Positions 6,915-64,000 of a stretch of DNA of 64,000 nt are shown here, in pieces. The notes beneath the pieces are model-generated. The model had not been told where the DNA came from, did not search any database, and saw only the letters and a list, made by a program, of their open reading frames with translations. Location of the stretch: the NCBI GenBank assembly GCA_030390025.1, contig CM059432.1, forward strand, positions 52,082,001-52,146,000, given 5' to 3'. The position numbers were made by a program, and so were the translations under genes. Source of the stretch: Squalus acanthias. Lineage: Eukaryota. The first letter of the stretch is position 1. Each line of letters begins with the position of its first letter.

Positions 6915-7377
6915 ATTCGGCCATCATGCCAAAAGCTATCCAATTATTTTTTCCCCTTCAAGTATTTATTCAATTCCCTTTTGAACGTTATTATTGAATC
7001 TGCTTCCACCACCCTTTAGGCAGTGCATTCCAGATCATAACAACTCGCTGTGTAAAAAAATGTCTCCTCATCTCGCCTCTGGTTCTTTTGCCAATTACCT
7101 TAAATCTGTGCCCTCTGGTTACCAACTCTTCTGCCACTGGAAACAGATTCTCCTTATTTACTCTATCAAAACCCTTCATGAATTTGAACACCTCTATTAA
7201 ATCTCCTCTTAGCCTTTTGCTCTAAGGAGAACAACCCCAATTTCTCTAGTCTCTCCACATAACTGAAGTCCCTCATCCCTGGTATCTTTCTAGTAAATCT
7301 CCTCTGCACCCTCTCTAAGGCCTTGACATCCTTCCTAAAGTGTGGTGCCCAGAATTGGAACACAATACTCCAGCTAG
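6915..7377 (-). mobile_element. CR1 LINE 3' fragment
   Basis: VFQFWAPHFRKDVKALERVQRRFTR and FFTQRVVMIWNALP are CR1 ORF2 C-terminal motifs. Confidence 0.9.
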
Positions 7378-7548
7378 GGTTCGCACAGGTTGCAGGCTTC
7401 CCCCAATTCCAGGGTCTCATTGACTACACCTACGTCACGCTGCAGGCTCCTTCAAATGACCCAAACTGCCTTCAGGAATCACAAGGGTTTCCCCTCCATT
7501 AATCTGCAACTGGTATGTGATCACCAGCAGCACATCATGCAGATCTGG
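7377..7548 (+). pseudogene. Harbinger transposase fragment (frameshifted)
   Basis: GFAQVAGFP..GLIDYTYVTLQAP..FRNHKGFPSINLQLVCDHQQHI aligns by eye with GFARVAGFPMVQGAIDCTHVALRAP..FRNRKGFHSLNVQLVCDHRQVI at 43.7 kb. Confidence 0.8.
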
Positions 7549-7611
7549 GGTGTCAGTGGATCAAAGCAAGCTGGGCTATTTTCTGTTGGTGAACCTCGTT
7601 TTTAACTTCAT

Positions 7612-22304: not shown

Positions 22305-24290
22305 AGGCCTGCAAATTGGATAAGGCCCGAAAACAGGGGGTGCCACCGCAGGGCGAGATTTGCTTGCGCCCGTTAAAAGATCGCAGGCAGCACGTTATTT
22401 TGGTGCTGCCTGCAGATTTGAATGATGTCAGCGCACAGTCCAGCGCCGAACGTACTGCTTCAGGCTGTGTGCTCAGCAGGAGGCCCAATGTCACATCCCT
22501 GGAGCGAGGCTGCCTTTTCTTAAAGCAAGGCATAATTTTAGAAAGCAGCTTCGAGCCCTTAAAGGGGAACTGCCTTCCGGAAAAAAAACATTCAAAAATA
22601 GGCAGTCTCTAGCCCTTATAGCTCAACTGCATTCTGAAAAAAAAATCAAAATCATTCAAACTATGCAGTCTTCAGCTCTTAAAACGAAACTGCATTCTGC
22701 ATGTAATAAATGGTAAAAGTGCTTCAGCACTAACACAAATAGGTCAACAGGCCAGGGAAAGGGCACTCAGGGTTTTGGATGCAGCACTCCAGCTTTGTGC
22801 AGGGGCCAACAGAGGTCCTCTACCCACAGGGGGCCAGGAGGCCCTTCAGAAAGAAGGATGTGGGACCAAATCGCCGAGGCGGTCACTGCCAGCAGTGTCG
22901 CCCCCCCGCAGGACCTGGCTCCAGTGCCCAAAGAAGTTTCATGACCTCAGAGAAGTGGTCAAGGTCAGTGATTGCATCTTCTAAAGCCGCCTACTACCAA
23001 CTACATGATTCGCCTCACACACTGCTGAATGCATGACCCCCCCCCCCATCCCCATCACTCACCTACCAACAATCTGTACCAAACATGAGGCACACCTCCC
23101 ATTCCTAGCCTCACCTCACCCCCTTTTGAGGAGGCGGTGCTGGCCATTCTTGGCAGGAGTGTGGCTGAGCCCTTGGCCAGCGGTGGGGCTGAAAGGCTAC
23201 AAGATGCTGGCATCCTCAAACATTATCCTCCTTCTCGCATGAACCTGTTGCTTTCCCTCCCTTCCCTCACCACAACTCAACCCTTTTGCCTTCCTCATTT
23301 CACACACCCAAGAAATACAGCCTGCCCAGCCAGTGGTTGACCAAGAAGAGGGGGAGGAGAGTGAAGAAGAAGAAGAAGAAGAAACACTGTCACTTGATTT
23401 GACACTCCCAGCCACCAGCTCCTCAAGGTCAACCAGCAAGGCCATTTGCAGTGTCCCCCACTGAAAATCAGCAGCCTTCCAGCATTGGTGCTGCAGCCAC
23501 TTGGGTAGCACTGCGTGACATCAGTAGGATAGGCAAAGGCACATATAAGACAGTCACTAAGGGAATGCATAAGGTGGTGAGTTGATTTCTTGATGTCATA
23601 TTGGATGGATAGATGTATAAAGTTGGTTTGGAATGTTTGCTTTGTGGTGGCTTTTATTTCAGCAGACCAAGAGGATGCTGTGATGGTCAGTAACAGAGGG
23701 AAGGTAAGGTGTGGACAAATGTTGAAAGGGGAATTGGAGTTGTGGTCACTGGTACCGCAGGTGGATGATTCCATCCCGGATATCCCGGCCAGAAAGGGGC
23801 TGTCTGGGTTGCTTCCTCCTCTTCAGCTTCCTCCTCTTCTGCATCTTCCTCTTCCCTCTGCGAGCTGATGCTGTAAATCTGAAATGAAAGCATAAAGGCA
23901 GCATCCGTGGAGAGAAAAACAGAGTTCATGTCTCAGGCCGAGATGTTGCCTGACCTGCTGAGTATTTATCGCACTTTCTGTCTTCTCAGAGGCCTTCCTT
24001 TACCATCTAAGGCCTTGCAAGTGTCCAGCAGCACTCCCTGCACACTTAAAAAACTTTTAACATGTGCTGCACCAAGCCACTACTTCAATAAAATAAAAAA
24101 AATTCCAGTCCAAAGCTTAAATGCAAACTTAACCGAAAGATTTGTGTGTCCCTTTAAGAGGTGTTGGTAGCGTCTCTGTCAGTCTGCTGAACGCTGGGTT
24201 TTCATAGCGAGCTTAGGACTCAGTGCTAAGGTCGAAATTCGCTGAGATGACATTAAGTCAGCGTGATGTCACCCCCTCTTAATTTACATT
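22305..24290. mobile_element. Degenerate internally deleted Harbinger element with Myb exon 1 remnant (+, ~22750-22962)
   Basis: PQGARRP..WDQIAEAVTASSV..RTWLQCPKKFHDLREVVK followed by GTCAGT; acidic remnants; boundaries approximate. Confidence 0.65.
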
Positions 24291-42330: not shown

Positions 42331-43189
42331 CCAACCTATGTAATACTGCAATAACAACAGAAAATGCTGGAAACACTCAGCAGGTCAGGCAGCATCCATG
42401 GAGAGAGAAACAGAGTTAATGTTTCAGGTCTGTGACCCGGTCACCTGTCACTTTAATTCTCCGCTCCACTCCCACTCTGACCTCTCTGTCTTCAGCCTCT
42501 TACACTGTTCCAATGAAGCTCAATGTAAGCTCGAGGAACAGCACCTCATCTTTCTATTAGGCACTTTACAGCCTTCTGGACTCAACATCGAGTTCAACAA
42601 TTTCAGACTATAACCCCTGCTCCTATTTTTTCAGGCAGCAGCTGTTGATGATTCTGCCATCCCCATTTGCAACATTTAAGGGTAAAAATTCACTTGGTTG
42701 CGCCTCCCGTTAGCGCCTTAAGAGGGCGCTAATGGGGCGTTAAGCCGCTAACGCCCGGGCGCAGCGATGTTTGCGCCGCTCGAGAACTTAACTTGAGATT
42801 GTGCGGCGGCGCTAAAACTTACCGCTGCGACCACCTGCGCGCGCAGATTATGACGTCATTCCATGGTGCAACGCCCTTGGGGCGCCCCGGAGCGGAAATT
42901 GAGTGGCGCCCCCTGCCTTACCACCTGGCGCTTCCAACGACCGGAAGACTGGAACGCTATCAATCGGTGTGGGGCTGGGGGGGGCGCTATTTAAAGGGGG
43001 CCTCTTCCTGTCTTTTTCTGTGGTCGACATTTATGCACCACTCGTTCTGAGAGAGAGAGAGAGATTCGGAGAGAGAGAGAGAGAGACTTCTACATTGACT
43101 CAACGCTTTGTGAGGTAGTTTTGCCTATTCATCCTAACTTTGTTGCTACTTTAGTTGCTGTACCTCATTACTTTTCTGGCAAAGAAAAT

Positions 43190-44341
43190 ATGGGGGCTGC
43201 AATGATTGGGGGCGTCGTCCTGCTCCAGCTGAATCGGAGGATACAGAGACGCAGACAGAGAGTGGCAATGATGGCCAGACGGAGGAGGGCCATCAGGCGC
43301 ATGTACAGGAGAGCTTACCCTCCCAGGGTATATCGTGAACAGCTCTCCTACATCCATATGTCCGAGGAGCTGTGTTTGCGAAGGCTGCGATTCAGCAAGG
43401 AGGTGGTCACTGAGCTCTGCCACCTGCTGCAGCCAGATCTGCAGCCTCAGCTGAGGTCCAGGACGTCTCTGTCGGTGGCAGTGAAGGTCACAGTGGCTTT
43501 GAACTTCTACGCCACTGGCTCATTCCAAGCTGCTGTTGGGGACCTCACCAATATCTCCCAGTTTGCGGTGCATCGCTGCATCCGGCAGGTCACCAATGCC
43601 CTCTTCAGAAGGAGATGAGACTTCATCTCTTTCCCTATGACCCCAGACAAGCAGCGTGACCGTGCTCTGGGCTTTGCAAGGGTAGCGGGCTTCCCCATGG
43701 TGCAGGGCGCCATTGACTGCACGCATGTGGCCTTGCGTGCTCCGCGAGAGAATGCAGAGGAATTCAGGAACAGAAAGGGGTTCCATTCCTTGAATGTGCA
43801 ATTGGTCTGTGACCACAGACAGGTGATACTCGCTGTCAATGCCCACTATCCGGGCAGCTGCCACGATGCTTTCATCCTGCGCCAGACTACTGTGGCAGAA
43901 GTTTTCGAGGCACCACATCAGCCAGTTGGTTGGCTTCTCGGGGACAAGGGGTACGCATTGAGCACCTGGCTGATGACACCGCTCCGTACGCCAAACACCC
44001 CTGCTGAGCTGCGGTACAATGAAAGCCATCAAGCAACCAGGAACATTATTGAGCGCACAATTGGCGTGCTGAAACAACGGTTCCGCTGTCTGGACCATTC
44101 CGGAGGAGCCCTGCAGTACTCGCCTGAGCAAGTTTCGAACTTCGTAGTCGTGTGCTGCATGTTGCACAACATGGCAATCCTCAGGACCCAGCCAATGCCA
44201 CCAGGCCTTGTAGCACCACCAGAGGAGGAGGAGGAAGAGGACGAGGACGATGATCATCAGCAGCACCAAGGCGGGAGGGCGGCCCACAATGGTCAAACTG
44301 CAAGGGCCGTCCGTCAACGGCTAATAGCAAGCCGCTTCTAG
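43190..44341 (+). pseudogene. Harbinger (HARBI1-like) DDE transposase, 383 codons with one in-frame TGA at 43616-43618
   Basis: ORFs 43121-43618 and 43637-44341 share a frame; motifs LRRLRFSK, ALNFYATGSFQ, GAIDCTHV, YPGSCHDAFIL, LLGDKGY, IERTIGVLKQRFRCL. Confidence 0.93.
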
Positions 44342-44635
44342 GGCCCCTGCCATTGCTACAAACACTAATCAACCCAGCACGCAACCCCTAAGCCGGCCAA
44401 GGCACCAATAATTCCAACCACCAGCCATGTATATTTTGAATACAGAAACTTATTTATTTTACAAACTCTGTGTGTGTCAATTCCTCATGACAAACTCATA
44501 GAAATAAACACAAAAAAACAGTCAATAACATAACTGGTTCTCACAACCTGGAGATAATGTCCAAAACACTAAACAAAAGTTGGACCATGAACCTTGGCCT
44601 TTCATAAAAAAATGACCAGCATTTTGTCACACCTC

Positions 44636-46502
44636 CTACTTTTTGCCCTTCGAGGGTGATCTCCTTCCCTTGCGCACTTCCCCCCTTCTAACCCTACTGC
44701 TCCTCCGTAATGGGACCTCAGTGGCTGCAGCAAGGCTGGTGGAAGGCTGTTGCTCGTCAGACCCTGACACTGCAGATGCCCCTGAAGGACGGCCTCGACC
44801 ACTTCTGGGCCTGGAGGGCCCGGCTGCAGACTGCACCAACTCTGCATGGGCGGCAGCAGTCTGTCCTACAGGCGGTGGCAAGTGCAGTGGAGAAGTGACA
44901 GTGTTGGCAGCAGGAATGCTGTCATCGTGAGAGAGGCCAGCAACTCCCTGCTCGCCCGACACACTGGCACTCCCACGGGGCAGCACTTCAGCATCCGGAG
45001 CAATCTGCCGGAGAACAGATTGCTGGCCTGCTGCGGCGCGGTGACAGCCCCGGGGACATGTGCACGTACCATCGAGGTTGGCAGCAGTCTGTGCTCGCGT
45101 GGCCTCCATCTGAGTCTGTATGAGAGCAGTCAGAGGTGGGATCACGGCAGCCAGTGACTGAATTGCAGCACTAAGCGTTAGTGTGGCATCCGCCTGTGCT
45201 ACAGCGAAGTGCTCCACACTCCTTGCCAGTGACTCAATGCATTCGGGCACCCTTCCCACTGCACCCATGAGCTCAGTGTGCATGCCCACCGCCTGGGTGT
45301 TCATTTCTGCAATCAGCCGCTCCTCCTCTGCGTCCATTGCAGTAGGAGTGTCTGGCATACTCTCCCTCTGGGGAGAAGGCCCCCGTTCTTCCCTACCCCC
45401 CCCCCCCCCCATGGCGTTGCTGCAGCCCGCTGGGTCCTGGAGCTTCACCATCATCAGCCCCTTCCCCCCTGCTCCCCTCCGGGGAAGGCGTGTTCCCAGT
45501 GTGGGCATGGGCTTCCTCGGGAGAGGGTGGCACTGATGCTCTGGCTTCCTCTTCCTCCTCAGCTGCAGCATCACTCCCAGTGGCAGCTTCAGGGCCCGTC
45601 TCCTCAGCTGGTGAATCACCATCTGAAAGCAGGGAGGTACAAGAGTGGCTTTAGCGTGAGGACAGGGTGGCAGTAAGGGAGGAATAAGTGCAGCGAGTTA
45701 GCAAGTTGGATTGAAAGTGTCAAAGGCTGGTGTTGTGAGGGACAAGTGGAAGGACAGAGGACAAAAAGGTGATGACCTTACCATTGCTGTCCACAACGGG
45801 GTCGGCGTCTCCAGTGGCGACGGGACCGATCACCCGGCTTGCCACAATCCTGTGGATGCGCTCCTCCAGATCGCTGAGGGGTTGCAGCTGAAGCCGCCCT
45901 CCACCTGTCCGTTGCTGCTGTCTCCTATTATGAGCCAGCTTAGCCTGCAAGAAAAAGGACAGCATCTGAGTAAATATACAGCCATGGTCTTGCCTGATGT
46001 GCCTCCCATAGGTGAATAGCCCTTACAATATACAGCCATGGTCTTGCCTGATGTGCCTCCCATAGGTGAATAGCCCTTACAATATACAGCCATGGTCTTG
46101 CCTGATGTGCCTCCCATAGGTGAATAGCCCTTACTGTATGCAAAGTGTGGAATGTGTGTGTGTGTTTGATGAAAGGGCCATAGGTGTTGGATGAGTGTTG
46201 TGCATTGTGAGGTGGAGTGAGGTTGAGATGGAGGGATGGAGAGGTATTGAGAAAAAGCCACTCACCCTGACGACCCGAGTGAGGTCGTTGAACTTTTTGC
46301 GGCATTGAGTATGGGTCCTGGGCACCATGCTCCTGGAGGAGACGCTCTGAGCCACCTCCCTCCACACTCTTCTGAACTCGCGTGGCAAAGGCCTCCTGCC
46401 ACTCTCAGGGAACAGCATACATCGTCTGCGCTCCACTGCGCCAACCAGAGCATCCAAGGCCCGCTCGGTGAAGCGATGAGCGCGTTCTCTCACCCTCTCC
46501 AT
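44636..46502 (-). pseudogene. Harbinger Myb/SANT-like gene, 3 exons (46502-46266, 45944-45782, 45622-44636), apparent 1-nt frameshift in a G15 run
   Basis: MERVRERAHRFTERALDAL..WREVAQSVS..RTHTQCRKKFNDL; GT-AG junctions (GTGAGT/TTGCAG, GTAAGG/TTTCAG); exon 2 AKLAHNRRQQQRTGGG. Confidence 0.85.
45973..46134. repeat. 3 x 54-bp perfect tandem repeat in Myb intron 1
   Basis: Identical units at 45973, 46027, 46081. Confidence 0.95.
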
Positions 46503-47304
46503 GCTTGGCAGCAAAATGGATTCACAGGTCTCTCCAGGCTGAGATTCAAGGCTGCAATGAGCAGGGTGTGGCTGGGGAGCAAGTGGCCCCCCCCGCTTTA
46601 AGAAGTGTCCGGCGCCAGTGTGTCTGTGTTCCCTCGCTAACTGGCAGCAGCTGCGCTGCGCTCGCGCGCTGAGTTAGCGCCTCACTCCTTGGCCTTTGCG
46701 CCTTAAGAGAGGTGTGCAGCGCCTGCTTTAGCGCTCCACTCACCTCCCGGGGCGGTAAAAGTGAAGTTTCCTGTCAGTGCCGATAATTAGCGCCAGGCGC
46801 TAATATTTGCGTCTGGACGATATTTGCGCCCCAAATGGGGCGCGACCTAATTTCTACCCCTTAATCTATCCTGCCTTCCACCCTATCACAGACCATCCCT
46901 TTTGTTCTTTTCTCCCCTCCCCACTTTCCCTGCCTCTGCACCTGGTTAAAATCTGTTACATCTCTAACTTTTTCCAGTTCTGACGAAGGGTGCTGAGTGT
47001 TTCCAGCATTTTCTGTTGTTTTTTCAGATTTCCAGCATCCGCAGTATTTTGCTATTGTGTAATACTGCATGTCACCGTGGGTACACCACAGTGTGTGCAT
47101 TTACAAGGATAAAGCACTGTTGTCATTTATGCCTAACGGACCCAGTGTAAACATACCAGTGTGTCTTTTTTAACAAATACAAAAAACTTTTACTTGTTAT
47201 AACTTCAAAATGGATTATTTGTGTTGTGGTTATTAGTACTACTTTGCAATAGTCTACACTTTACAGGTTTCTACAATAAAAATAACAGGGATGAGAAAGT
47301 AACT

Positions 47305-47820
47305 CACAAATGACATCCTTTGTGACTGTGACCATGGTAAGCTATCCCTCCTCGACCAGTCTGCAGCCTTTGACACGGTTGACCACTCCATCCTTCTCCA
47401 ACGCCTCTCCGTCGTCCAGCTGGGTGGGACTGCACTCGCCTGGTTCCATTCTTATCTATCTAATCGTAGCCAGAGAATCACCTGCAACGGCTTCTCTTCC
47501 CGCTCCTGCATCGTTACCTCTGGTGTCCCCCAAGGATTTATCCTTGGACCCCTCCTATTTTTCTTCTACAAGCTGCCCCTTGGCAACAGCATCCAAAAAC
47601 ACAGCGTCAGTTTCCACATGTACGCTGACGACACCCAGCTCTACCTCACCACCACTTCTCTCGACCCCTCCACTGTCTCTAAATTGTCAGACTGCTTGTC
47701 GAACATTCAGTACTGGATGAGCAGAAATTTCCTCCAACTAACTATTGGGAAGACCGAAGCCATTGTCTTTCGGTCCCTGCCACAAACACCATTCCCTCAC
47801 CACCAACTCCATCCCTCTCC
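47305..47820 (+). mobile_element. L2 reverse transcriptase fragment
   Basis: SAAFDTVDH, GVPQGFILGPLLF, MYADDTQLY, WMSRNFLQLTIGKTE. Confidence 0.88.
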
Positions 47821-49164
47821 CAAGCAGCCAAACCAGCACAGATTGGGTTATTGATCCTGGGACCTTCTTTGGTGTATGGCCTTAATATGTAGCCATTATC
47901 TTGAGTCACTGGGATGGCTCACAGTTGAGACTGTTAAAGAGCCAATGTTGCTTCTAAAACTGATTTGAAAACTTGGAGCAAAGCTTTCTTCTCTTGTAAG
48001 GTGCTTTTATGCTAGTGCCGCCAGGTGCCCCAACGCAAACCTAGTGCAGCTGGCTGCATGAGTCCCATCCATGCTTGGGGAACCTGTCAATATAAAAGTG
48101 CCTATAGTTGTATTTGCTGTGTAAATATTTTTAAATTCCCTTGTTTTAGCTGCTAAACAAACAACCTTTCTCAGACGTCTTGTGAGTTAAGAGGAAAGAG
48201 TATTTAAAAAGACAAGTTACAGAATACACAAGCAACAGACATGTTAGAGCAGGGTACTGACTCTAGATGGTTAGATAAAAGAGCTGTTAAAAGCATTTGC
48301 TACTCTGTGATGTGGCTTGACCAAAAGCAAAATACTTGAATGACAGACTCCCAAAAGTATCTAATTAGACTTCCTGGCAGACTACTTAACATTCTTGATT
48401 TTAAAAAAAAGTGTGGCATGTTTACAGTCTTTCTCTGCAGATAGCACTGTAATATACTGCTCTCAGTAATTTGACTATGCTACATTATGGTGAGAATCAG
48501 TTATGTAACCTTATTACAAAATAGCACTCCTACTACAATAATGAAGAGGAACTCACCTTTGGGTCCTCTTCGGCCAGACAGCCACCTGATGCTGTTCGGA
48601 GCATGCACGGCACTTTATCCACCCAGCTCAGTTCAAAAATGGAAATCGGAGCCCTGTGTGCATCAAAGTACCCCAGTTAGCATTTTAAACGGGCATCCCA
48701 TACCGCCTGACTCATGGAGCTGGTGTGGTCGTTCAGCTGTAGGCCCGAGGTGACATTGCCACGGCCACAGTGACAGTGGCAACGGGGTGGTAGATTGTTG
48801 CTCACCATTTTCGGGGTGCTACTGCCCTGTGTCCGCCAGGTGGGAGGCCTGAAATTTCTTCCCACTGTCTTTAGGATGAGATGTTATCTGGGGGAGCTTG
48901 CTGTTTGTGGGGCCTTGCTACGTGCAAAAACTAAGTCAGGCTGTTTGACTGCAAGGGACATCACATTTGAGCCCAATCCCATCCTCACCCGATGTCCATA
49001 CCTGTGTACTTCTGGCAGGAGTACATTGAATAGCAATCTGGAGTGCGACTGCTAGCTTGTAGAATATCTGTTGCCCGTGCTGAGATCCAAACCCCTTTTC
49101 AATACTAGCTGCAGCATTAGAACACCAAAGCAAATTGCACTTTTTAAGCCAAAGGCAGTTTAAG

Positions 49165-54154: not shown

Positions 54155-56134
54155 GGGCCGCGATTTCCCCTACCTCGGCGGGTCCGTGGCGGGCGACATT
54201 GGTGGCGGGTCCTGGCCTCGCTGCCGGCTCCAGCCCACTGTCCAAAATGATTTACCCTAATTGGGCTTGTTAAGCCCGCCCAGCGCGTTTGCCAGCCAGT
54301 TGAAGGAAGCAGGTCTGATGACGTCATTTGATGACGCGTCATCAGCCGGTTTTCTTAAAGGGACCATCCGCAAATTTACTTTGACAGTTGTGCTGTCAGT
54401 GATCTACAGCATTGAGGTGCTGCAAACACTGACAAGCACTGTACAGAGGTGCACGGCTGCACCCAAGCTCTCCCATGACTCCCTCCATATGCTTATGGAG
54501 GGAGTCACCGCACGCAGGGAGGTCCTCTTCCCTTCCCATGGGCGGAAGAGACCTCCCCAGGAGACCAACGCAGCCTGGTTGCACATTGCAGAGGAGGGCA
54601 CAAGCAGGGATGTCGTCAGGAGGACCTGGGTGCAGTGGCGCAAACCTTTCAATGATCTCAGTAGATCACGAAACGTTGCTGCAAAGCCACACTCAACCTC
54701 ATCCTGCTGTGCCACTCATCACATCCCCATCACTCTGCCTTCCCTACCCTACTCCTGCACATCCTTACTCACACCACTTACCTTGCACCTCTACCCATCC
54801 CCCTCTATCTACATTATCACTTGCCCATCTCACTAGCCACCCCTCACAATCACCCTCATCCTAGTCCAATCAACATCACACAAGGGTAGGCACTTGAGTG
54901 CTTTATGCAATGTTCATGTAAAGTTTCTGTTAATGTGGTGTCAACCTTTATTTTCAACACTTTGCGTTCTTGGACAGATCTGTGTGCACCTTTGGAAGTG
55001 GCTTTGTAAGTTGCAGTGAATGGTGAGACATAACTGTACCCCCCGCAGTGGTGATGAGTGTGAAAGGAATGGCTTGCACATTGTTGGGATGTTTTATGGT
55101 GTTGGTGTGGGGTGGTGCTAACCTGGCGCATCATGTGGCAGCCAGGGTGTACAGCGTCAAGTGAAGTAAATCTGGCCATGGTGAGGCAATCCCTGGCCTC
55201 CCGGGCAGCAATGTGGTCAGGTGCTGATGCCTTTTGTCCTGTGCAGCATCAGTTGATTGCGGAGAAGGTTGGTGTTGTTGGTGCTGCTGCTGTGCCTGGT
55301 GCTGGTGGTGTTGGGGCTGATCGTGGTGGGATTCTGAGGACCAAGGTGAGATAGTTTCAAGGGCACCGATGCTGATGTCATAGCTGCGGAGATGCCGGTG
55401 TTGGACTGGGCTGGACAAAAGTGAGAAGTCGCACAACACCAGGTTATAGTCCAACAGCTTTATTTGAAATCACAAGCTTTCGGAGCGGCTGCTCCTTCGT
55501 CAGGTGAAGTGAAGAAATACAAATATTTTTTTTTTCTTCACTTCACCTGACGAAGGAGCAGCCGCTCCGAAAGCTTGTGATTTCAAATAAAGCTGTTGGA
55601 CTATAACCTGGTGTTGTGCGACTTCTCACTGATGTCATAGATGGCAGGTGAACTTGAGATGACAGAAGCAATCTGTCAATGGTGAGAGAGGTTGTTCCAA
55701 TGAGGTGACACTGGATAGAGAATTTATTCCAAACACTTGCAACCTGCATAAAGCTCAATTTGTCTTCCAAATGCAGTAAGCAACAGCTTCTGAGCTTGGA
55801 AAGTGAACAGCTGTGAGATGGGAGCTTTTATAGCACATTTGCAGCAGTCAAGTAATGAGATAATTCCACAGTCATACAACTCCCGACCTGTTTACCTGAC
55901 GTGATCCTCGAGCAGCGTGGACCTCGTAAAATGTAAAGGTGTGCTCAAAATACTTCTTAATGGGCTGTTAACAAGGTCATAATGACCTGAATTGCCTCCC
56001 CCACCGCTGCATGTCGGGTCTGTTCAGCACTGACAGACCCGACATCTGGGAAAGGCGCATGGCAGCGGGTTGACAGCGGGGTTCGGGAGGAACGCGCCCA
56101 CTGACCCCCCCCACCCACCCCCGAAAAATTCCCC
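54155..56134. mobile_element. Internally deleted Harbinger element (Myb exon 1 on +, transposase end on -)
   Basis: TSD CTG (54152-54154, 56135-56137); APKLSHDSLHMLMEGV..WLHIAEE..RTWVQWRKPFNDL; minus-strand AAREARDCLTMARF resembles the transposase C-terminus. Confidence 0.8.
55384..55628. mobile_element. Inverted double PLE family A repeat with two hammerheads (55470-55507 minus, 55543-55580 plus)
   Basis: Perfect 98-bp inverted arms 55420-55517 / 55533-55630; TSD CTGATGTCATAG (55372-55383, 55629-55640). Confidence 0.9.
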
Positions 56135-62469: not shown

Positions 62470-64000
62470 TCATAGAGTCATAACGGCACAGAAGGAGGCC
62501 ATTCGGCCCATCGAGTCCGTGCAGGCTCTCTGTAGAGCAATCCAGTCAGTCCCATTCCCCCGCTCTATCCCCGTAGCCCTGCAAGTTTATTTCCCTCAAG
62601 TGCCTATCCAGTCTCCGCTTGAAAAATTTGAGGGGGAGAAATTCAGTATCGCCCCCTTTGGGGCGCAAAGTTTAGCGCCTGCCGCTAATTATCGCCTCCG
62701 ACTGCAAACTTGGCTTCTATCGCTCCTGGAGGTGATTTGAGCGCTAAATCAGGCGCTGCCTCAGAGCACTAGCGAAGCTCATGTGATGTCAGTGAGCAAT
62801 GGAACACAGACACACTGGCGCCGGCCAGTTCTTAAAGGGGAGGGTCGATCTTGCTCTCCAGCCACACCCTGCTCATTGCAGCCTTGAATCTCAACCTGGA
62901 GAGACCTGTACATCAATTCTGCTGGAAAGAACAATGGAGAGGCCCAGGGAAAGAGCTCGGAGTGCAGCCCCCATAGTCTTCTAAATCGACGCAAGGAAGG
63001 TCAAATCAAAATGAACCTGCAAAGTGCTGCTCAGTACCCAAAACTCCTTCACATAGCGTTGTATCTCTCCAGAAGTCTCTCTCTCTCAGAATGCGTGGTG
63101 CAAAAATGTCGCCGACAAAAAAAGGTAGGAAGCGGCCGCCTTTAAATAGCACTCCCCCAGTCCCTTCCCGACTGCAAAATGTTCCCCTCTACCTGTCGTT
63201 GCTAGCGGCAGGCGGAAAGGCAGGGGGCGCCACTCAATATCCGATCCGGGGCACTACTGGGGCGTTGCATGCTCGACTGACGTCATGATCTGCGGGCGCA
63301 GGAGATAGTGGCGGGAGTGTTTAGCAGCGCCGCAAAATGTCTGGTCAATTTCACGAGTGGCGCAAACATCGCCGCGCCTGGGCTAGTTGCTTTGTGCCCT
63401 GTTAGCGCCCGGAGGCGCTAATCAACCGAATTTTTCCCCGAGTGTCTCCGCTTCCACCACTTCCTCGGCAGCAAGTTCCAGGTCCTCACCACTCGCTGCA
63501 TAAAAAAGTCTTTCCTCACGTCCCCCCTGTATCTCTTACCCAATACCTTAAATCTGTGTCCCCTAGTCCTTGTACCATCAACTCGTGGGAACAGCCTTTC
63601 CCCGTCTAGCTATCCAAACCCGTCATAATCTTGTACACCTCTATCAAGTCACCTCTCAACCTCCTTTGCTCTAATGAAAACAAATCCAGCTTCTCCAACC
63701 TGTCCTTGTAGCTAAGATCCCCTTTTCCCGGAACCATTCTGGTAAATCTCCTCTGCACCCTCTCAAGTGCCTTCACATCCTTCCTAAAGTGTGGTGACCA
63801 GAACTGGACGCAATACTCCAGTTGTGGCCTAACCAGCGCTTTATAAAGGTTCAGCATAACTTCTCTACTTTTGTACTCAACACCTCTGTTTATGAAGCCC
63901 AAGATCCCATATGCTTTGCTAACCACTCTCTCAATATGTCCTGCCACCTTCAGGGACCTATGCACATTAACTCCCAGGTCCCTCTGTCCCTGCCTACTCT
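62470..64000 (-). mobile_element. CR1 3' end (runs off window) split by a Harbinger derivative
   Basis: LVRPQLEYCVQFWSPHFRKDVKALERVQRRFTR; 3' UTR at 62470-62600. Confidence 0.9.
62633..63439. mobile_element. Non-autonomous deletion derivative related to the 42679-46860 Harbinger, opposite orientation
   Basis: TIRs GGGGAGAAATTC / GGGGAAAAATTC, TSD GAG; keeps Myb start MERPRERAR; right arm homologous to ~42700-43050. Confidence 0.85.

Follow-up and report, generated by a model that had tools for sequence, protein, structure and literature searches.

A DNA transposon of the PIF/Harbinger type occupies positions 42679-46860 (4,182 bp) of a 64,000-nucleotide stretch of Squalus acanthias contig CM059432.1, a stretch that is called the window throughout. 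The element, flanked by TTA on either side and ending in terminal inverted repeats (TIRs) of 12 bp, carries two convergent genes, an intronless one for a DDE transposase and a three-exon one for a Myb-like protein (Table 1). Judged by its sequence, it is a full-length, disabled member of a PIF/Harbinger family of sharks and rays that exists in multiple copies. A preliminary description of this DNA had named a two-component Harbinger, and the domains of the two proteins (PF13359 and PF13873), the TIRs and the TTA target-site duplication (TSD) bear that name out.

The comparison draws on 21 sequencing runs. Twenty of them, from 11 studies, contain part of the 64-kb window, and 16 of the 21, under coded organism labels A-F, contain at least half of the sampled window words. 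None of the 20 is recorded as RNA. Four runs were aligned to the window, all as assembled contigs: X1 and X15 (label A), X18 (label B) and X9 (label D). X20, with a share of 0.05, was left aside. The substitutions against the window considered here are 40 of 303 rows and the junctions 15 of 149; the 35 differences that fall within the element were analysed, four flank rows and one indel-adjacent row being set aside. Summed depth was not taken as copy number.

Table 1. Positions of the element's parts, and of a related derivative, within the window
Feature	Positions	Strand	Remark
Left TSD, TTA	42676-42678	+	Empty paralogous sites fit a 3-bp duplication
Left TIR, 12 bp	42679-42690	+	
Left subterminal region, 6 TWGCGCC	42698-42989		Candidate binding sites of the Myb-like protein
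TATA-like TTTAAA upstream of the transposase	42990-42995	+	Kept in the diverged derivative; putative
DDE transposase gene, intronless, 383 codons	43190-44341	+	
Premature TGA, codon 143	43616-43618	+	Family codon CGA; CpG decay
Opposed AATAAA, one per strand	44453-44508		44453-44458 (-), 44503-44508 (+)
Myb-like exon 3	44636-45622	-	Acidic linker, helical C-terminal region, basic tail
Homopolymer of 15 (family 5)	45396-45410	-	10-base expansion, frameshift
Myb-like exon 2	45782-45944	-	P0008 residues 81-116 match
Three tandem 54-bp units in Myb intron 1	45973-46142		First two identical; splice acceptor untouched
Myb-like exon 1	46266-46502	-	Myb/SANT-like DNA-binding domain
TATA-like CTTAAA upstream of the Myb gene	46597-46602	-	Kept in the diverged derivative; putative
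Right subterminal region, 5 TWGCGCC	46675-46830		
Right TIR, 12 bp	46849-46860	-	
Right TSD, TTA	46861-46863	+	
Non-autonomous internal-deletion derivative, 0.81 kb	62632-63440	-	77-82% identical to both ends

Two genes, each with a frame-breaking lesion

The transposase matches PF13359 (E 2.5e-39), a domain of the DDE_Tnp_4 type. Its residues D176, D252 and E288, which we take to be the catalytic columns, are the commonest residues at their positions in 98, 93 and 77 of the 120 homologues listed, so that the D/D/E motif is intact, as had been described. The reading frame is interrupted at codon 143 by the in-frame TGA whose origin from CGA had been suspected, and all four compared runs agree with that origin: at 43616 the letter is C in 174,398 of 174,475 of the summed depth in X1, where the T-bearing depth is at most 77.5, and in all of the depth in X15, X18 and X9. 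The family codon is thus CGA, and the TGA is a CpG decay private to this copy. Since the stop precedes all three catalytic residues, this copy can yield no active transposase.

The Myb-like gene has GT-AG introns, and its three-exon layout agrees with that of continuous homologues. Exon 1 matches PF13873 (E 4.8e-9), and a search with it among longer proteins returned one match from 165 candidates. In the window the spliced frame ends after 209 codons, right behind a run of 15 C, whereas with a run of five bases it stays open for 458 codons; neither gene of this copy is therefore an uninterrupted reading frame. Ten letters are missing at 45396 in one contig each of X15, X18 and X9 (C5 against the C15 of the window), so that three of the four runs uphold the homopolymer frameshift of the preliminary description. 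The frame behind the run has nine relatives among 1.84 billion representative proteins, all of them shark by their public names, and three of these (P0123, P0124 and P0126) run across the site and switch window frame at 45397-45427; P0123, read by eye, keeps the same spacing across it. The frameshift is a 10-base homopolymer expansion private to this copy. The truncated product would retain the DNA-binding domain and lose the C-terminal half.

Two further length differences lie in the same gene. The helical C-terminal region is without about 45 residues (near 45205, minus strand) that are found in six of seven aligned relatives; X18 piece 23 and X15 piece 13 cross this place ungapped, and the shorter form is therefore that of the family and not private. 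In intron 1, about 17 bases that are present in X15, X18 and X9 are missing from the window (46206-46215).

Among the 35 differences within the element, 11 show the other letter at 80% or more in all four runs. These near-fixed differences comprise one nonsense, four missense, two silent and four non-coding changes, the missense ones being at transposase codon 120 and at three places in the Myb gene, and seven of the 11 arose by decay of a CpG in this copy. No other stop or frameshift was found among the 40 rows, which thus do not refute the preliminary description. The earlier statement that each gene is one lesion from intact consequently stands for frame-breaking lesions, of which the listed differences hold one per gene, and fails as a statement about all changes, since at least four missense changes accompany them. 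The expectation that the element would be easy to reconstruct was justified: the family form, whose two genes are uninterrupted at the sites of the lesions, can be read from near-identical copies. Two further residues of the transposase were considered as private lesions and rejected. Codon 303 (H303) is spanned by X9 piece 28 and X18 piece 22, in which the sole difference is explained by 44062; codon 93 (S93) is spanned by X9 piece 26, in which both differences are explained by 43450 and 43547.

Termini, target site and subterminal repeats

The boundaries, TIRs and TTA duplication that had been proposed are confirmed by the agreement of the two termini at 10 of 12 positions and by empty sites of the predicted length. 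The mismatches are at positions 1 and 7. The left terminus starts with A, while G is found at the right end, in the derivative at 62632-63440 and in two X9 contigs; the X9 observation is a weak one, with two contigs, a loose end at 42680 and an agreement of 0.73. It is possible, from this comparison, that the first base of the left terminus is a further private, cis-acting change of this copy. The A may be harmless, as PIF/Harbinger termini are described as beginning with A or G (PMC4482050).

In element-free copies of the surrounding repeat, the distance from flank to flank is exactly that predicted by a 3-bp duplication. The corresponding joints are 42679>46869, with four letters between, and 42677>46864, with one. 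These joints were rejected as evidence of insertion polymorphism, given that the flanks are a high-copy repeat and that the joints carry other letters, as paralogues do; with repetitive flanks, empty sites are uninformative on polymorphism. The length of the empty sites would agree just as well with a target of TAA and a terminus of 11 bp, a reading that leaves the ends asymmetric and was set aside. The multi-copy state of the element is evident in X1, where variant letters occur in dozens of contigs per site. The interrupted repeat covers 42339-42678 and 46861-47058 and has 44-bp inverted arms; it may resemble Penelope-associated shark repeats. Immediately to the right of the element, the frames at 47295-47854 (plus strand) look by eye like reverse-transcriptase fragments of a long interspersed nuclear element (LINE).

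Within both ends the motif TWGCGCC is repeated, six times in the left 322 bp and five times in the right 301 bp. These 11 occurrences in 623 terminal bases compare with an expectation of 0.64 and a maximum of four in 2,000 dinucleotide shuffles, and there are none in the 3,313 internal bases and nine in the 58,418 other bases of the window. In a control for the later choice of the motif, the top 5-, 6- and 7-mer counts were reached in 0, 3 and 2 of 1,000 shuffles. The repeats are likely to be binding sites of the Myb-like protein, because the Myb-like protein of the zebrafish element Harbinger3_DR is described as binding a subterminal 9-bp motif, as well as the transposase (PMC9710019; PMC9392472).

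As the preliminary description had noted, TATA-like hexamers stand upstream of both genes, where they are putative promoters, and the convergent genes are separated by opposed AATAAA signals. The element has no other such hexamers than these two, which are located between the genes and are crossed by X15 piece 11 and X9 piece 29; if they are used, the 3' ends of both transcripts would overlap. The abundance of CpG that had been remarked upon holds mainly for the ends, with observed/expected ratios of 1.01 and 0.75; the element as a whole is at 0.55 and the flanks are at 0.38 and 0.37.

The derivative at 62632-63440 keeps both ends and both TATA-like hexamers and has five TWGCGCC against 0.35 expected, with no clean target duplication. 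It belongs to a related, older subfamily. Other Harbinger remnants in the window are a transposase fragment at 7275-7596, a short Myb or transposase fragment at 22815-22987 and a Myb/SANT exon at 54453-54668 (PF13873, E 1.3e-7), which has one TWGCGCC at 54637.

Relatives and a proposed two-protein mechanism

The relatives of the transposase (120 of 404 listed) are mostly from sharks and rays. Among the matches listed, the best full-length identity is 61% and the best partial one 70%, and the bony-fish matches are at 43-51%. In a quick tree built from the window protein and 45 chosen matches (46 rows), the window transposase falls in an elasmobranch-only clade of 38 rows, with a Shimodaira-Hasegawa-like approximate likelihood-ratio test (SH-aLRT) support of 98, which points to a shark or ray as the host. 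The nearest sequences are elasmobranch proteins named 'putative nuclease HARBI1' or 'myb-related' (P0001, P0002, P0123 and P0126), with 61-70% identity in the transposase, 55-62% in Myb exon 1 and the same exon and frame layout. They are annotated as host genes, not as transposons.

With regard to classification, the element shares with the PIF/Harbinger group of PHIS, as outlined by Han and others, the two genes, short termini that start with A or G and an AT-rich 3-bp duplication, and with 4,182 bp it comes close to the average length reported for the group, about 4,124 bp (Han et al., 2015, PMC4482050). No difference in kind from that group was found in this comparison, to which Repbase and Dfam were external and in which no match to a named family was made. 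The NuwaI, NuwaII, Pangu and ISL2EU groups are set apart in the same source by the targets CWG, C(TNA)G, ANT and A(AT)T or by a YqaJ second gene; here, as judged from one insertion, the TTA is flanked by T and A and the second gene is of the Myb type. Zebrafish Harbinger3_DR, compared by description, likewise works with two proteins, of which the Myb-like one binds a subterminal motif and the transposase (PMC9710019; PMC9392472); its motif has 9 bp, whereas the present element has a 7-8-bp TWGCGCC repeat and a TTA target. HARBI1 and NAIF1 are of the same two gene kinds, but they are host genes in single copy with an age of about 500 million years (PMC9392472), while the element in the window is a bounded, repeated transposon. 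An origin of HARBI1 and NAIF1 from such a gene pair, to which the preliminary description had referred, is therefore to be kept for the superfamily some 500 million years ago and not for this family.

Taken together, we consider it likely that the locus holds a decayed full-length copy of an elasmobranch Harbinger family that expanded in the past and used a two-protein mechanism. By analogy with the zebrafish and rice elements, from which the protein roles and the cutting mechanism are carried over, the Myb-like protein of an intact family member would bind the TWGCGCC repeats within both ends, bind the N-terminus of the transposase and carry this DDE enzyme into the nucleus. The enzyme would then cut at the 12-bp termini and insert the element at a TTA/TAA target, duplicating the target. 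This copy would have inserted into another repeat and then have been methylated and decayed, a CpG transition creating the stop and slippage lengthening the G run, with a shift of the Myb frame. With ends that are largely intact, it could presumably be moved in trans by the proteins of other copies. A predicted complex of the N-terminal part of the transposase with the C-terminal helix of the Myb-like protein, computed without alignments, scored 0.00 in two runs, and none of 177,635 sequences of solved structures matched the transposase profile.

Harbinger elements are reported as absent from the elephant shark, and other cartilaginous fish as needing analysis, in the survey by Etchegaray and others (Etchegaray et al., 2022, PMC9179366). 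In the repeat annotation of the grey reef shark, Tourist/Harbinger elements are given as the commonest DNA transposons (PMC12498223). A catalogue of 2015 lists 88 potentially active families (PMC4482050), and the vertebrate Harbinger3_DR has already been reconstructed and transposes in human cells (cited in PMC9710019). A literature search, in a field that excluded subscription journals, Repbase and Dfam, found no description of a full-length elasmobranch Harbinger. The main text of the Squalomix preprint (bioRxiv 2025.06.08.657570) makes no mention of Harbinger, and its supplements may list the family; the supplementary repeat tables of shark genome papers may likewise contain it already. What was known, then, is the superfamily, the annotation of Harbinger in sharks and one reconstructed vertebrate family, and what is new is a family member with its full anatomy from an elasmobranch. 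With this anatomy, a candidate motif for binding and open frames in the family form, the two-protein mechanism becomes testable in a second vertebrate family; the understanding of how Harbingers work is unchanged.

In the database, sequence of the Myb-like gene occurs in several chimaeras. P0124 joins RING, B-box and PML coiled-coil parts to exons of the Myb gene, P0128 joins immunoglobulin domains to a piece of the Myb C-terminus, and P0008 and P0129 hold Myb-gene sequence and DDE in one chain. These fusions appear to be products of exonisation or annotation artefacts.

Age, activity and alternative explanations

The window copy differs from the closest listed pieces at 24 of 2,506 bases in X9 (seven of eight pieces, one diverged piece being dropped), at 18 of 1,467 in X15 (five of eight, three diverged pieces dropped) and at 34 of 1,301 in X18 (six of eight, two flank pieces dropped). 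A shark mutation rate of 7e-10 per site per generation has been reported, with a confidence interval of 1.4-14.1e-10 (PMC10587355). At this rate, borrowed from one species, the 0.96% of X9 corresponds to about 14 million generations, with a range of 7-69 million. The identities of the X1 pieces (n=58,228, including flanking repeat) are spread over 9,412 at 99% or more, 18,009 at 95-99%, 25,702 at 90-95% and 5,105 lower, which fits several waves of expansion. Near-identical sequence is found under six organism labels, some of which, being coded, may stand for samples that merely contain elasmobranch DNA. The last large expansion lies about 1% back, which is millions of generations, and probably predates the split of the related species that share the family. 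In genomes with so slow a clock, 99% identity need not mean recent.

A number of points weigh against this interpretation. The mutation rate is that of a single species, and an insertion cannot be dated by its distance from a majority form: DNA transposons that are defective can be moved in trans, and CpG decays above the average rate. A younger subfamily is possible, given the X1 pieces at 99% or more. With respect to the lesions, no contig of X1 shows the 10-base gap at 45396, and a true run of 14 in the animal would leave the Myb frame open. The comparison covered a part of the substitution rows and junctions. TWGCGCC was picked post hoc, a concern that is tempered by the k-mer control. Splice joints say nothing either way: none is among the 15 junctions, and contigs of X15 and X18, runs guessed to be RNA, cross the introns and the termini.

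Of the alternatives, the one that survives best holds that the family is active now, or was very recently, in living elasmobranchs, with intact masters elsewhere and this copy as a damaged member. It is in keeping with a family form in which both frames are open at the two lesions and the D-D-E triad is intact, with the many X1 pieces that are at least 99% identical, with CpG-rich element ends and with the small T-bearing depth at 43616, which suggests a very large family, summed depth not being copy number. We nevertheless regard present activity as unlikely, since the divergence of about 1%, most of it CpG decay, accrued under a very slow clock, and since a near-identical form under six labels fits an expansion before the species split. 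In the grey reef shark, moreover, DNA transposons make up 1.58% of the genome and recent activity is ascribed to LINEs (PMC12498223). The suggestion of a young family that may still be active is not supported, a divergence near 1% corresponding, with a rate of 7e-10 per site per generation, to roughly 10^7 generations.

Equally doubtful in our estimation is the most far-reaching version, in which living sharks or rays harbour a very large Harbinger family that continues to move, with intact masters and with members that are near-identical across several species and possibly spread horizontally. If true, it would provide a vertebrate two-component transposon that is active in nature and targets TTA, in a lineage for which the loss of such elements has been suggested; it would also supply new mutations to genomes whose point-mutation rate is among the lowest measured.

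Slightly less probable is that one or both lesions are assembly errors and that the Myb gene, or even the whole copy, is intact in the animal. Long homopolymers are error-prone, and with 14 bases in the actual run the frame would be kept; an excess of 10 bases, however, is implausible as a read error, so that at most the last base is doubtful. The stop is a typical CpG transition that stands alongside six others, and X1 has a small non-C depth at 43616. The transposase would be truncated regardless of the run.

Recent horizontal transfer between species, as the cause of near-identity under several labels, we judge to be improbable. The six labels under which 16 runs hold at least half of the window words, and the identities of about 99% and 97.4% in pieces from labels D and B, are in keeping with such transfer, and a Harbinger transfer between salmonids and carp has been reported (PMC9179366). 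The labels are perhaps those of close relatives or of samples with elasmobranch DNA, though, the depth of X9 being low and flat, and where the clock is slow, related species differ by 1-3%. The 120 matches listed include no near-identical protein of bony fish or of another outgroup.

The last alternative, a domesticated gene pair of the HARBI1/NAIF1 kind, could point to relatives that are named 'putative nuclease HARBI1' and to several that look domesticated, but the element's termini and target duplication, the empty paralogous sites, the many copies of near-identical sequence, the insertion within another repeat and the disabling lesions in both genes make it extremely improbable for this locus.

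Among the other transposases of the Harbinger type, five short-branched groups span shark and ray genera and are 74-92% identical within groups in the core: P0007/P0014/P0016/P0020/P0024/P0028, P0022/P0025/P0065, P0039/P0040, P0011/P0012 and P0004/P0005. No paper on them was found in the literature search. They look like several elasmobranch-specific domestications besides HARBI1, and they are possibly more interesting than the element itself. The catalytic E is lost in 13 of their 15 members.

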